A stretch of DNA of 64,000 nt from a phage. The translations under genes and the position numbers were made by a program. Positions within the stretch are counted from its first letter, which is position 1. Every line of letters begins with the position of its first letter. Of this stretch, positions 59,269 to 64,000 are shown piece after piece. Where the stretch lies: the NCBI GenBank assembly GCA_025823825.1, contig GCA_025823825.1_4720.1; one strand, written 5' to 3'. Below the pieces are notes generated by a model. The model did not search any database, had not been told where the DNA came from, and was given only the letters and a program-made list of their open reading frames with translations.

Positions 59269-59802
59269 TTAAGCTCCTTTGTGTTTTACGGACGATGTTA
59301 ACCAGGACGATCTTACCGTGAAACCCTCAGACTCGTAGAACGCCTGGGCTTCATCATTGTCGGCGCGAACATCCAGACCGATAGAATGGCCACCGCACTG
59401 GTAAGCGATGTTGCGCGCCTCATTCATCAAGGCATGGCCGATCCCGCGTCCGCGATATTCGGGTTTTACAATAATCGATGTAACGTCATGAATGCCCATA
59501 TGGCTCTCTGTATTCACTTCCAAGAGGCCTACCGGCATCGAAGCGATAGCATCGATCATAACGACCAACATTGCAGTATCTGGTAAACGCTTTTCTAATT
59601 CTAAAGCATCGTACTCGCGTTTTAAATCGGGGATATTCTCAAACATAAACGTGGTAGCCCATGCCTCTGATTCTACATCGTCGAGAATACGGTACAGCTC
59701 ACGAATCTGTCGTTTATGTGGGTAAAGGTGTGGATCGGCAGCCGTTGAGGCGATAACGCAATAGAACGGTCGTTCATTAATAACTACTGTTTTGATGCTC
59801 AT
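59269..59802 (-). CDS. GNAT-family N-acetyltransferase (177 aa)
   Basis: Acetyl-CoA binding motif VKPEYRGRGIGHALM and C-terminal AQAFYESEGF; ATGA overlap with upstream gene. Confidence 0.8.
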   Translation of the reverse strand: MSIKTVVINERPFYCVIASTAADPHLYPHKRQIRELYRILDDVESEAWATTFMFENIPDLKREYDALELEKRLPDTAMLVVMIDAIASMPVGLLEVNTESHMGIHDVTSIIVKPEYRGRGIGHALMNEARNIAYQCGGHSIGLDVRADNDEAQAFYESEGFTVRSSWLTSSVKHKGA

Positions 59803-60305
59803 GCTAAAATTCCCTCATTACCTAACAGTCGATTACGATGACGTCGGTACATTTGACAAAGTGTTGTGATTTGATAATGTTTGTTATAACGTAATTCGAT
59901 ACGTTTTTGCACCTCTTTCCATGAAAGTTTATCGTATTGCCGATAACGATGGATTTCATTTAACATACGAAGACGAGTAGGATCGGTGTTCTTTATCGTC
60001 GTGAGCTTCACACGTTGATATCCACGCTGTAGTCCCGATTCGGAATACGTGACGTCAAACTCATCTTGAATGATGGTAATGATCTCCCGCCACCGACGGT
60101 TCTCGCCGTCACGTAAATGGACAACCCGCGATAAGATATCGTTCCGATTACGATGACTCAGTTTAATGTTAAGCATTGAAGCAATCGCGCTAATTGCTCT
60201 CTGACTCCGTCCTAACGCTTCACCTATTTCTTTCGATGTCATGACGCCCGCGTTTCGGCGTATGAATGCGATTTCGGTTGTTGTGTATTCTTTACCTGCT
60301 GCCAT
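59799..60305 (-). CDS. Myb/SANT-like helix-turn-helix repeat protein, array member A (168 aa)
   Basis: EIGEALGRSQRAISAIASML and W-containing repeats (WREIITIIQDEF, WKEVQKRIELRY) shared with the next five genes. Confidence 0.7.
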   Translation of the reverse strand: MAAGKEYTTTEIAFIRRNAGVMTSKEIGEALGRSQRAISAIASMLNIKLSHRNRNDILSRVVHLRDGENRRWREIITIIQDEFDVTYSESGLQRGYQRVKLTTIKNTDPTRLRMLNEIHRYRQYDKLSWKEVQKRIELRYNKHYQITTLCQMYRRHRNRLLGNEGILA

Positions 60306-60769
60306 TTCTTACCACGTGTGTTATAATAGTAACGCTGACAAAGATGTGTGTGATGATACTCCCGTTTGAACTCGACGCTGATAATGCGAGCAACTTCTCT
60401 CCAGTTAACTCCTTCATGCCGAAGTGCTGTAATACGGTCTGAAATTTTGCACCATTCATCTGGATCGTATCGTCGTAGTTTGAGTCGTCGTATTACGGAG
60501 GCGACACTCGCTCTCGATCGACCAAGATGATTTGACAGTTGTTTAACCGAGTATCTGTGGATATTGTCACGAATATAGGAAATCTCGTTGTCCGTATATG
60601 CCTCATTGGTTCTCGACGAAGGGAACAGCATATACAACTTATTCTTAATCGCGCTTTCTGTGCGTTGAAATACAGAAGCCAGCTCACTAACCGGTGGTCT
60701 GGGTATCTGGTCCGCGTAATACTCGAGGCGCGAGAGTTCCTCATCTGTCCAGCGACGACACTTGCGCAT
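60239..60769 (-). CDS. Myb/SANT-like HTH repeat protein, array member B (176 aa from internal ATG)
   Basis: Internal ATG (MRKCRRWTDEELSRL) with AAGGAG 7 nt upstream; QLSNHLGRSRASVASVIRRL; WREVARIISVEF. Confidence 0.7.
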   Translation of the reverse strand: MRKCRRWTDEELSRLEYYADQIPRPPVSELASVFQRTESAIKNKLYMLFPSSRTNEAYTDNEISYIRDNIHRYSVKQLSNHLGRSRASVASVIRRLKLRRYDPDEWCKISDRITALRHEGVNWREVARIISVEFKREYHHTHLCQRYYYNTRGKKWQQVKNTQQPKSHSYAETRAS

Positions 60770-61244
60770 GGGCAACTCCTTTGTTTTTCGTGTAGTAACA
60801 CCAACGTTGATACAACGCATGTTTATTCGTTGTAATCCCAAATTTAACAACAACGTCGTATGTGATAACATTCCAATTTTGGGTAACGTTAAGTCGTTCC
60901 GCGATAAACGCGATAATCGCTTCCCGTTCTTGCTTGGTTAGCGCACGACGAATTCTATTAAGCCGTATAAACTGACGAACCGAGTCATACGAACGGTTTA
61001 AATCGTACGCAATCTCCCTCAGCGATTTTTGTTTGATTACCGACTTGATGTACGCGCGTTCTTCTTCCGTATACGGTCGATGCTTTTGACGTTGACGTAT
61101 TCCCAAACGTCCCAGACGCGCGTCGATGCTGGCGCGTGTTCGTCCTGTCCGTTGTGCGATTTCATCAATCGTCAGCGACGTGTTCAAATACAGGTGTGTA
61201 ACATCTTTTAACTCATCGTCACACCACGGCCGAGGTCGTCCCAT
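60741..61244 (-). CDS. Myb/SANT-like HTH repeat protein, array member C (167 aa)
   Basis: PWCDDELKD...IDEIAQRTGRTRASIDARLGRL; WNVITYDVVVKF; GAGGGA RBS. Confidence 0.75.
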   Translation of the reverse strand: MGRPRPWCDDELKDVTHLYLNTSLTIDEIAQRTGRTRASIDARLGRLGIRQRQKHRPYTEEERAYIKSVIKQKSLREIAYDLNRSYDSVRQFIRLNRIRRALTKQEREAIIAFIAERLNVTQNWNVITYDVVVKFGITTNKHALYQRWCYYTKNKGVAHAQVSSLDR

Positions 61245-61735: not shown

Positions 61736-62203
61736 CTATTCTACGCGTTTTAATGCTTGAGTGTAGTAGAGGGCATGAACACCGCTTAACGTGTAATGGG
61801 TGTTAAATTCGTTATTGATGATATTCTGTATTCTCTCCCAGGTTTTCTTCTCTTTTCTAAGAGTATGTATTCGGTGATAGATCATCTCTCGACGTTGCGC
61901 TTTGCACGCGATAATACCGTAGCGGTAGCAGAGTTTAGCGATCGCATCCACGCTACGATTGAACATTACCGCGGCTTCTTTCACGCTGTGCGTCTTGAGA
62001 TAATCGGCTAACATCACGCGTTCTTCGAAACAACAATAGCGGTGACGCGACGTGAGTTTCCAGCGCTTGCGATTACGGTTAATTCGACCTTGAACCGAAC
62101 CTTCCGTTCGGCCAAGTCGTACCGCAATCTCTTGCATCGGTATACCGTTTCGGTACAGGGTAATCAACATCGCATCTTCTTCGGGTGTCCAGTCCTTGAC
62201 CAT
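61736..62203 (-). CDS. Myb/SANT-like HTH repeat protein, array member E (155 aa)
   Basis: DWTPEEDAMLITLYRNGIPMQEIAVRLGRTEGSVQGRINRNRKRW closely follows the Myb repeat pattern (WTxEED ... W); WERIQNIINNEF. Confidence 0.75.
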   Translation of the reverse strand: MVKDWTPEEDAMLITLYRNGIPMQEIAVRLGRTEGSVQGRINRNRKRWKLTSRHRYCCFEERVMLADYLKTHSVKEAAVMFNRSVDAIAKLCYRYGIIACKAQRREMIYHRIHTLRKEKKTWERIQNIINNEFNTHYTLSGVHALYYTQALKRVE

Positions 62204-62215
62204 AATGCCACCCCA

Positions 62216-62536
62216 TCAACGTCTTACTTTAAGCGGTATCTTGTTTCGAAAACAATAACACCGGATGGCATGTACGCTACGATTCATTATTTCAGCAATC
62301 TCTTTTAGCGTATGTTTCTTTGCAAGCGTGGCAACCCTAACCCTTTCTTCTGGCGTATATACTCCCCCACGAGGTGGTAGGTCACCCCGTTGTTTTCTCA
62401 ACTTGATGTAACGTGCGCGAACAGAGCACGGTGTTCGGTTCATGCAGCGCGCTACTTCTTTATAGCTCGCTTTTGGTGACGTGCTAAGAATAAGCAGCAG
62501 TGTTTCATCTTCTTTATCCGTCCAACATTTACCCAT
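62216..62536 (-). CDS. Myb/SANT-like HTH repeat protein, array member F (106 aa from ATG; track start is TTG)
   Basis: ATG ([14 protein letters not shown]) with AAGGAG upstream, start overlapping the last codons of the ligase gene; [21 protein letters not shown]; [16 protein letters not shown]. Confidence 0.7.
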
Positions 62537-64000
62537 CTTTTCTATTCTCCTTAACCTTATCAATCATCGAAATAAGCATGTTGATACTTTCTTCTTCGTT
62601 ATCGGTTGCATCCCAGTCTTGGATAACGGGAATCCCCAACGCTTCAGCTTTCGCGAGTTTACTACCGGGATTACTTCCACAGACAAGAACCGTTGTGTTT
62701 TTACTTACACCGCTTGTGATTGTGGCTCCCATGGTCGCTAAACGCGTGGCGAGTTGGTTTCTATCGATGTTGTTGAAACTTCCCGTGATAACGACTCGCG
62801 TATCTAATAACGGTAACTGATTCATTTCGCGTTCCTTAACTGGAGCTGGCGCTACACCGACATCGTACAACAAATCGAAGATATATCCGCGATTTGCTTT
62901 ATCGTAGATGTACGTTAGGATCTGATCGGCTGTGATCTCACCGATACCTTCAACTGCGAGTAAGCTTTCTTTATCAGCAGCTAAAAAGCTATCCACCGTC
63001 TTAAACGCGTTGGCAAGATCGCGCGCTGTGCTTTTACCTACTGTAAGAATACCTAACCCGTAGATGAAACGTGCTAACGTAGTCTCTTTTGATTTCTGAA
63101 TAGCGTCGATAACCTTGAAGGCGCTATAATCCGTAAACCCTTCCAGTTGGCTAACCTGCTCACGAGTTAACAGATAGAGATCAACCGCAGATTGCACCAA
63201 CCCACAGTTGTAGACCTGTTCCAAGAACCGTTCGCCAACACCTTCGATATCCATGACGTCACGACTTACCCAATGAATAAGACGCGCTACCGCTTGGTCA
63301 GGACAAGTTCCGGTTGCAGGACAACGCCAACGCGCTTCATTTTCCTTTTTCGTCAATACTGTCCCGCAGGTTGGACAATGGGTTGGAAAAATGATTTCTT
63401 TTCTTTCCTCTCCGGGACGCACACTCACGATTTGAGGAATGACGTCACCCGCGCGGCGGATAACAACATCATCACCAATGCACACACCTAACCGTTTTAT
63501 TTCGGCTTCGTTATGCAGCGTGATGTTGCTTATCGTTGTGCCTCCAACGAACACAGGTTCGACGCGAGCCACAGGCGTGATGCTTCCGGTTCGACCTACT
63601 TGAAAATCAACATCAAGCAAACGGGTGGCTTTTTCTTGCGCTGGGAATTTCCATGCGCGCGCCCAACGTGGTGCGCGAGAGGTTGCGCCGAGCTTCTCCT
63701 GCATCGCGACGTCGTTCAGTTTTATCACCATACCGTCAATATCAAACATTCGGTGCTCGCGTCCTGCAAGTATATCGCGATGCACCGTAATTAACGCTTC
63801 AGTCCCAACGACGATATGCGATTCGTTAAATAGACCTAATCCTAATGCGGCAACAAACCCCATTTTTGATCCCTGCGTTGCAAACGTGTAAATATTACCA
63901 CCATCCATGAAAACATCGTAAGGGCAGAACAACAAACGACGTTTTGCAACGGTTTGTGGATCCAAACGTCGTAACGTACCTGATGCCGCGTTACGTGGAT
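62529..64000 (-). CDS. ligA: NAD-dependent DNA ligase (LigA-type), N-terminal adenylation region beyond window edge
   Basis: Colinear with bacterial LigA from the adenylation-domain motif [10 protein letters not shown] onward: [13 protein letters not shown], Zn-finger CPTCG...C..C, HhH region, C-terminal BRCT ([15 protein letters not shown]...[15 protein letters not shown]); frame open to base 64000 (…[14 protein letters not shown]…). Confidence 0.85.

Follow-up and report, generated by a model that had tools for sequence, protein, structure and literature searches.

A tandem array of six paralogous genes for small basic multi-HTH proteins, putative distant relatives of T5 D5, in a Goslar-like jumbo phage

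Organisation of the locus

The analysed window, a stretch of phage DNA of 64,000 nucleotides, is 96% identical to phage Goslar, and its source is a Goslar-like nucleus-forming jumbo phage of E. coli. Within a replication-gene operon, six consecutive minus-strand open reading frames of 106–176 amino acids were found at 59799–62536, named here A to F and corresponding to Goslar gp119–gp114, five of which carry the RefSeq label 'hypothetical'. The same six genes had been recognised in the initial annotation, with an array end at 62563; that position is an upstream TTG, and the ATG of gene A lies at 62536. Gene A (gp119, 62216–62536) encodes 106 aa from this ATG, gene B (gp118, 61736–62203) 155 aa, gene C (gp117, 61219–61722) 167 aa from a GTG start, gene D (gp116, 60741–61244) 167 aa, gene E (gp115, 60239–60769) 176 aa including a 23-aa tail, and gene F (gp114, 59799–60305) 168 aa. 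The 'member E' of the initial annotation is gene B in the present naming.

The array lies directly 3′ of the gene for an NAD-dependent DNA ligase, of which the 3′ part is present on the minus strand at 62529–64000, in a frame that stays open up to the edge of the window and with a product sharing 92.7% of its amino acids with Goslar gp121, and the overlap described earlier between the two genes holds, with 8 nt shared between the ligase stop and the gene A ATG. An indel (Goslar gp120) is located at this junction. The conserved lower boundary is formed by a minus-strand GNAT acetyltransferase gene (59269–59802) directly downstream of gene F, the stop of F and the GNAT start overlapping by 4 nt. 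Spacing between the array genes ranges from +12 to −67 nt, the largest overlap being that of the gene E tail with the start of F, and an SD-like sequence precedes all six genes. The N-terminus of F is longer than in the Goslar gp114 annotation; as the upstream ATG and this N-terminus are conserved, that annotation appears to be 21 codons short. In a scan for sigma-70 promoters and terminators, promoter-like sites were fewer than in shuffled sequences and no signal was observed inside the array, and a k-mer search for repeated candidate binding motifs returned none tied to it.

Paralogy and repeat architecture

Genes A–F descend by ancient tandem duplication from a single gene encoding a small basic multi-HTH protein. 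Their paralogy, proposed in the initial annotation, was supported by Smith-Waterman comparisons against 500 shuffles each, with z-scores of 3.1–35 and the observed score reached by 0–5 of the 500 shuffles, C and D being the closest pair (33% identity, z 35). All six products are strongly basic, with pI values of 9.9–10.3, and the only matches of the family HMM in the whole 64-kb window are the six array genes. The repeat units described earlier are likewise present and separable by type: mean z-scores were 8.5, 7.8 and 5.8 for comparisons within unit 1, unit 2 and unit 3, respectively, 3.4 between units 1 and 2, and about 0.2 between unit 3 and either of the others. The units thus sort by type and give the architectures 1-2 for A, 1-2-3 for B to E and 2-3-3′ for F.

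Each unit comprises 45–52 residues and three helices, folded as a three-helix bundle in which helices 2 and 3 form the HTH, as in Myb/SANT domains. AF2 models of the products of B (pLDDT 86.5) and F (pLDDT 75.6) each contain nine helices. The recognition helices are conserved within each paralogue group and differ between groups. Unit 3 is an extra C-terminal domain confined to the Goslar-like lineage: a search with this unit alone gave no relatives, and its comparison with Pfam was nearly empty, with one of 11 members passing the cut-off (E 5e-4, Myb).

Comparison with known HTH families

Mixed matches to the Pfam Myb families were observed among the six proteins: a cut-off is exceeded by A and C, B, D and E fall below it, and F is absent from the matches. 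The product of A exceeds the cut-offs of Myb_DNA-bind_6 (35.5 bits), Myb_DNA-binding (32.6 bits) and HTH_23 (27.6 bits), and that of C matches Myb_DNA-bind_6 (PF13921) with 29.8 bits, its best stretch lying in unit 3, and PF00249 with 23.5 bits against a cut-off of 24.4. Across the aligned units, only the first tryptophan of unit 1 is conserved, unit 2 opens with Y or F, and unit 3 contains one invariant tryptophan at helix 2. In this respect A–F differ from Myb/SANT domains such as c-Myb R1R2R3, WER and the CoREST SANT domain, the second and third conserved tryptophans being replaced, and the 18–19-residue tryptophan spacing is therefore absent. The statement that such repeats are mainly eukaryotic proved wrong, as matches to the unit 1-unit 2 module were obtained in 15,397 clusters of prokaryotic or viral proteins; the 'Myb-like' unit is a repeat widely spread among prokaryotes and viruses and no eukaryotic import.

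The sigma region 4 comparison that had been recommended was positive, with Sigma70_r4_2 scores of 35.9, 27.1 and 26.7 bits for B, C and D, above the cut-off of 25.7, and the EIAxxLGxSxxTV motif is common to the array units and to sigma-70 region 4 and LuxR-type HTH domains. Sigma70_r2 was matched by none of the six proteins and the NCBIfam sigma models scored far below their cut-offs; since region 2 and the other sigma regions are absent, A–F are not sigma factors. In the recommended Pfam GcrA comparison, scores of 15.1 and 13.2 bits remained below the cut-off (26.9 bits), with alignments covering profile positions 2–60 of 155 only, the remainder of the proteins consisting of further HTH units. 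The closest bacterial structural match is the GcrA DNA-binding domain. GcrA of Caulobacter, with homologues in phage phiCbK, has one HTH domain per protein against several in A–F, which also lack its C-terminal sigma70-interaction domain; GcrA is an RNAP-sigma70 cofactor (PMC4647560).

Among solved structures, the best sequence match is Cbp1 (PDB 2lvs, E 1.7e-9), the match extending over HTH, basic linker and HTH. Cbp1, a CRISPR-repeat DNA-binding protein of Sulfolobus, resembles A–F in being small and built solely of tandem HTH domains, and differs in being archaeal and single-copy and in having another biological context, with the unit 3 type domain unaligned. Secondary PHROG matches were to the HNH endonuclease families phrog_1891, 8446 and 7545 (E down to 1e-7) and were limited to the HTH parts of those profiles; no HNH nuclease domain was matched in A–F by Pfam. 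NCBIfam holds no dedicated family for A–F, and no meaningful match for the array proteins was obtained from PADLOC and the anti-defence families.

Relation to T5 D5 and distribution

All six proteins match PHROG 323, 'transcriptional regulator, D5-like', with E-values from 1.1e-9 (F) to 2.8e-19 (A), that of gene E being 5.8e-18; it is the best family for A–F, the runner-up PHROG being weaker by several orders of magnitude, and T5 D5 itself matches the model with E 1.2e-71. When the array HMM was run against the six-frame ORFs from 40 kb of T5, D5 was the sole match (E 2.8e-9; D5 residues 71–170 and 207–236). Profile alignment of the array with D5 by hhalign gave E 5.4e-5 and a probability of 66%, and the pairwise similarity of A–F to D5 is weak, with z at most 5.3. 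T5 D5 (T5.118) shares with the array the tandem WTxEE...EIAxxLGR..S/V tri-helical HTH units as well as the gene position, an overlap with the 3′ end of an NAD-dependent ligase gene in the replication module being common to the two phages (T5 ligB 66538–67317, D5 67310–68077).

Several differences were also observed. D5 is a single 255-aa copy in T5-like phages (903 records, 906 places) against six copies of 106–176 aa here, is near-neutral with a pI of 6.3 against about 10 for A–F, carries a further N-terminal region of 70 residues, and is without unit 3, which scored E 0.015 and 1.2 bits against it. The full-length D5 architecture (~255 aa, N-terminal region, four HTH-like units) is thus not seen in the array, and only the di-HTH core aligns. 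As the similarity is confined to generic HTH repeats, for which A–F also gave matches to profiles of the sigma r4, LuxR and Lrp types, the PHROG 323 match could stem from the kind of repeat and not from orthology. With no more than 22–32% identity between the ligases of Goslar and T5, the shared ligase synteny may be coincidental, and on the same figure it was rejected that ligase and D5 had recently been transferred together between T5-like and Goslar-like phages. Judged from sequence comparison, A–F appear to be distant relatives of T5 D5, a real but not exotic family.

The array has a narrow distribution. With D and B as tblastn queries, no clear match beyond Goslar was obtained among 50,697 phages, gene B giving weak matches (E about 1e-4) to N4-like Klebsiella 'D5-like' genes and marginal ones to a few converting-phage and faecal records, and single-protein searches of viral contigs recovered Goslar and one near-identical contig only. 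A cluster look-up for long multi-repeat relatives returned five metagenomic entries and one 'DNA-binding Lrp family transcriptional regulator'. In the three other Chimalliviridae checked (Moabite, RSL2 and BONAISHI) no D5-like gene lies beside the ligase, which places the array outside the conserved replication machinery. The literature searched held no mention of Goslar gp114–gp119, named no DNA-binding regulator of Goslar and gave no Chimalliviridae transcription factors.

Lineage variation and selection

The order of the array genes is fixed across four Goslar-like lineages, and the individual members show differential conservation. Gene F is the most conserved (89–93% across lineages), and gene B is conserved at 92% and absent from one lineage (L008). 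Genes A, C, D and E are deeply diverged alleles within otherwise about 90% identical genomes, and fall into two cassettes that have been swapped for diverged alleles with purifying selection maintained. Both cassettes are hypervariable, and they separate type-I lineages (the window, Goslar and L004) from type-II lineages (L008 and L010). The E-D-C cassette (60283–61728) is without detectable nucleotide similarity to the sister lineages L010 and L008, to which its flanks are 88–92% identical, and the gene A cassette (62199–62488) covers most of that gene, which has lost unit 3 in the lineage of the window and keeps it in sister lineages (152–157 aa). The dN/dS values of the array genes range from 0.07 to 0.25, with dS rising together with dN, a pattern that points to the movement of old alleles by recombination and not to positive selection still in progress. 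Pseudogenes were rejected on the basis of purifying selection and fixed order. The unusual part of the locus is the six-fold multiplication and the swapped variant cassettes, and not the HTH family itself. New here, in addition to six copies instead of the one of T5-like phages, are the lineage-only C-terminal domain, the pI of about 10, the order kept in four lineages, and cassette replacement under purifying selection.

Proposed function

On balance, A–F probably regulate phage replication and transcription as D5-type multi-HTH proteins that bind dsDNA. T5 D5 is a dsDNA-binding regulator on which late transcription and the continuation of replication depend. The duplicated protein of the array consists of three independent tri-helical HTH domains with short basic linkers between them, the first two representing the same di-HTH module as in D5. 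In Myb R2R3, Sulfolobus Cbp1 and the GcrA DNA-binding domain, recognition helices are set into successive major grooves, and those of each array protein are probably placed on dsDNA in the same manner. The paralogues, with recognition helices differing by group, would then bind different sites, and by analogy with D5 they might modulate phage replication and the early-to-late transcription switch.

A host-directed or counter-defence role, in which A–F would cover the host chromosome, silence it or titrate host sensors based on nucleic acids, and in which the cassettes would result from an arms race with host systems detecting D5-like proteins, seems unlikely but has several observations in its favour. 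The array genes are lineage-specific accessories, and deeply diverged alleles such as those of A, C, D and E are typically seen at accessory or host-interaction loci. T5 D5 has a toxic effect on E. coli and is the trigger that retron-Kva2 senses (PMC13405049), and an HTH protein encoded by phage RAY, which forms a nucleus, binds to the DNA of the host (PMC10299810). The low dN/dS values with the joint rise of dS, which point to old recombined alleles, the empty PADLOC and anti-defence comparison and the position in a replication-gene operon argue against it.

We regard as rather improbable that A–F are sigma-region-4/GcrA-like adaptors, serving as promoter-specificity or temporal cofactors that would tether the sigma-less multisubunit RNAPs of the phage to different promoter classes. 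The Sigma70_r4_2 scores of B, C and D, the structural match to the DNA-binding domain of a known RNAP cofactor, the dependence of T5 late transcription on D5, and the lack of Chimalliviridae transcription factors in the literature searched would fit such adaptors, but sigma region 2 and the GcrA sigma-interaction domain are missing, and the GcrA scores are below the cut-off. Moreover, the RNAPs are core, yet the genes are absent beside the ligase in Moabite, RSL2 and BONAISHI and escape BLAST detection in other phages. Homing-endonuclease remnants or stand-alone DNA-binding modules, as selfish-element debris or homing protection, are highly improbable: the three HNH families carry the same HTH repeats N-terminally and the gp120 indel adjoins the array, but none of 23 copies has a nuclease domain, the best profile match is D5-like and not HNH, and the genes are intact, in fixed order and under purifying selection in four lineages, on which grounds debris was rejected.

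Returning to D5-type regulators, a bolder and doubtful extension is that the array might represent the first recognisable sequence-specific transcription or replication regulator set of a nucleus-forming jumbo phage, each paralogue reading a different class of phage-DNA sites for the sigma-less phage RNAPs. The E-D-C and A cassettes would then be 'regulatory types', much as lambdoid phages have immunity types, or else escape variants from host sensors of D5-like proteins. For the timing of gene expression and replication in Chimalliviridae, the locus provides six candidate regulators with a D5 homology lead. It also offers a natural experiment, as close relatives differ almost solely in four array genes and B is missing from one lineage.

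Organization of the array

The array of six consecutive minus-strand genes (106-176 aa) proposed in the initial annotation is real and its limits are correct, with open reading frames at 59799-62536 that comprise, from the ligase side, genes A (62216-62536, 106 aa), B (61736-62203, 155 aa), C (61219-61722, 167 aa, GTG start), D (60741-61244, 167 aa), E (60239-60769, 176 aa) and F (59799-60305, 168 aa). An SD-like sequence lies 5' of each gene (6/6), and adjacent genes lie 12 nt apart or overlap, by 67 nt at most. The proposed overlap with the upstream NAD-dependent ligase gene was also observed, the ATG of A lying over the ligase stop codon; the ligase reading frame has no stop up to the window edge, and at the far end of the array the stop of F lies over the GNAT start. 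Positions 59700-62700 exhibit 96.2% identity to Escherichia phage vB_EcoM_Goslar, a nucleus-forming jumbo phage of the Chimalliviridae, in which the counterparts of A to F are gp119 to gp114, flanked by the NAD-dependent DNA ligase gp121 and the acetyltransferase gp113; in RefSeq only gp119 has a descriptive name, 'SANT/Myb domain-containing protein', gp114 to gp118 being 'hypothetical'.

Goslar harbors an extra non-HTH gene between ligase and array, gp120 (235 aa; 8842-9549 of its record, L001), which is unrelated to the array genes and missing from the window phage and from the Goslar-like sister lineages L004, L008 and L010, placing an indel precisely at the ligase/array junction (62529-62536). 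The annotated start of Goslar gp114 (L001 6100-6543; MTSKEIG...) removes helix 1 of the first HTH unit. Because an ATG 21 codons further 5' and the resulting N-terminus of F, MAAGKEYTTTEIAFIRRNAG (window 60243-60305), are kept in the window and L004, gp114 is probably annotated too short, the true gene encoding 168 aa. E ends in a 23-residue C-terminal tail (KKWQQVKNTQQPKSHSYAETRAS, window 60239-60305) whose codons lie in the 67 nt shared with the beginning of F; the E alleles of L008 and L010 (type II, 152-155 aa) lack it.

Unit architecture and fold of the array proteins

All 15 pairwise comparisons of A to F scored above shuffled controls (z 3.1-35, with at most 5 of 500 shuffles reaching the observed score), bearing out the suggested paralogy, with identities of 20-38% (BLASTP). 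Division of the proteins into units of 43-52 residues revealed three types of three-helix HTH unit, which group by type across the genes with mean z of 8.5, 7.8 and 5.8 for units 1, 2 and 3, respectively. Units 1 and 2 are mutually related (mean z 3.4), and unit 3 exhibits no sequence relationship to either (mean z 0.2). The architecture is 1-2 in A, 1-2-3 in B to E and 2-3-3' in F (3' being a second copy of unit 3), which indicates that the family arose when a complete three-domain gene was duplicated, and that F later lost unit 1 and gained its second unit 3. The family HMM detected no further members in the 64-kb window.

Only generic HTH families were obtained from Pfam: Myb_DNA-bind_6, Myb_DNA-binding and HTH_23 were above cut-off for A, Myb_DNA-bind_6 for C (strongest in unit 3) and Sigma70_r4_2 for B, C and D, while the GcrA model scored below cut-off and no dedicated NCBIfam model was found for A to F. 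AlphaFold2 predicted nine helices each for B (pLDDT 86.5) and F (pLDDT 75.6), interpreted as three 3-helix bundles, with low pTM (0.45 and 0.40) as expected for beads on a string. Against the PDB, the array profile matched Cbp1 of Sulfolobus (2lvs; E 1.7e-9, alignment spanning HTH-linker-HTH) and c-Myb R1R2R3 (2e-5). All six proteins have a pI of 9.9-10.3 and a net charge of +13 to +15. The original HTH/Myb-like call is broadly sound at the level of fold, which the Myb/SANT label fits, but the characteristic spaced tryptophans are absent and the EIAxxLGRSxxSV motif fits sigma region 4.2, GcrA and LuxR just as well.

Relationship to T5 D5 and distribution of the repeat

PHROG 323 ('transcriptional regulator, D5-like') was matched by all six proteins (E 1e-9 to 3e-19), with much weaker scores for the next-ranking families; D5 (T5.118) of phage T5 itself scored 1e-71 on this model. 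D5 overlaps the 3' end of the T5 NAD-ligase gene ligB, and is annotated as 'DNA-binding protein; required for DNA replication and late transcription; also is involved in shutoff of expression of ...'. It was the sole match of the array HMM in 40 kb of T5, its residues 71-170 corresponding to units 1 and 2 and residues 207-236 to another unit-2-like HTH, and hhalign of array against D5 gave E 5e-5. On the other hand, pairwise similarity of D5 to the array proteins is weak (z at most 5.3), T5 and Goslar-type ligases share only 22-32% identity, and D5, unlike the array proteins, is near-neutral and contains nothing corresponding to unit 3. The array proteins form a distant branch of an already known family of phage DNA-binding proteins. 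A 2026 preprint (PMC13405049) describes D5 as an HTH protein with mild toxicity to E. coli that binds retron msdDNA and acts as a trigger of retron-Kva2, and a 1979 paper, as cited in PMC12630848, identifies D5 as a DNA-binding protein affecting replication and late gene expression.

At E<=1e-3 the six-protein profile matched 15,397 representative clusters, of which 3,095 remained at E<=1e-10, so the initial view of these repeats as mainly eukaryotic is not tenable. The top matches are mostly proteins of 300-900 aa in which the unit1-unit2 module is repeated 4-11 times; six such clusters examined were all metagenomic, one with a generic Lrp-family name and five without a name. Unit 3 was confined to Goslar-like proteins among 160 proteins, mostly from two homologue searches, and a dedicated search found no relatives beyond them. 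Across 50,697 phage records, D had no BLAST-level homologue in other isolated phages; B matched N4-like Klebsiella 'D5-like' genes weakly and a few other records marginally. T5-like phages carry one D5 each (906 places in 903 records). Equivalent arrays occur in only some related phages: L004, L008 and L010 (assemblies and metagenomes) possess the array in identical order between ligase and GNAT, but no family member was found in the ligase neighbourhoods of the Chimalliviridae Moabite, RSL2 and BONAISHI.

Uneven divergence and exchangeable cassettes

The array contains six genes in L004 and L010 and five in L008, where B, otherwise highly conserved, is missing between A and C (L008 7038-7978). 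Gene A of all three lineages encodes 152-157 aa with unit 3, so this unit was lost from A of the window and Goslar. Divergence of the window from L010 and L008 is strikingly uneven: amino-acid identity is 86-96% for the ligase and the genes from GNAT onward (except g58839, at 61-63%), 90-93% for F and 92% for B (L010 only), and 52-57%, 44-49%, 39% and 45-48% for A, C, D and E, respectively. DNA similarity of 88-92% ends at gene borders, and is undetectable over 60283-61728 (E-D-C) and 62199-62488 (A). In A, C, D and E, both dN and dS are up four- to five-fold while dN/dS is still 0.07-0.36, as in the flanks, indicating that these genes are old, functional alleles swapped as cassettes. With the same flank-like ratios, decaying copies were rejected and no signature of recent positive selection was observed.

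The gene g58839 (58839-59267, minus strand, 142 aa), immediately 3' of the GNAT gene and with no family match, is hypervariable like the cassettes (60-63% amino-acid identity to sister lineages, flanks 89-96%), with dS saturated against L004. A D12-class N6-adenine DNA methyltransferase gene lies three genes 5' of the ligase, outside the window (L004 426-1250; L010 2379-3206); it is intact in some sister lineages, split or truncated in L008 and in the relatives L003 and L005, and absent from Goslar. The GcrA DNA-binding domain reads methylated DNA, and as it is the closest bacterial fold match, the methyltransferase may be relevant to the array.

Putative function of the array

The best-supported reading is that a D5-like multi-HTH dsDNA-binding protein has expanded six-fold specifically in this lineage, in an array that would be co-transcribed with, and translationally coupled to, replication genes. 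Within each orthologue group the recognition helices are conserved, and they differ between groups, which suggests distinct DNA targets for the paralogues. The analogy with D5 makes it probable that these proteins modulate both replication and the temporal programme of transcription. Cassette mosaicism, together with the triggering of a retron by D5, lends some support to a host-directed or counter-defence role, which is still considered unlikely; that the proteins are RNA-polymerase cofactors seems more doubtful again. No mention of Goslar gp114-gp119 was found in the literature searched. New here are the gene multiplication, the extra domain, the exchangeable variant cassettes and the fact that the host of the array is a nucleus-forming phage.

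A repeated hairpin elsewhere in the window

An identical imperfect hairpin, CTCCTCCAACCC-NNN-AGGGAAGGAGGAG, was observed in four copies, at 5896-5921 and 16887-16912 on the plus strand and at 37897-37922 and 43029-43054 on the minus strand. Its 3' arm holds a strong Shine-Dalgarno sequence, with an ATG following after a few bases, and the element has the appearance of a conserved stem-loop of the 5'-UTR or of translation initiation ahead of four genes.
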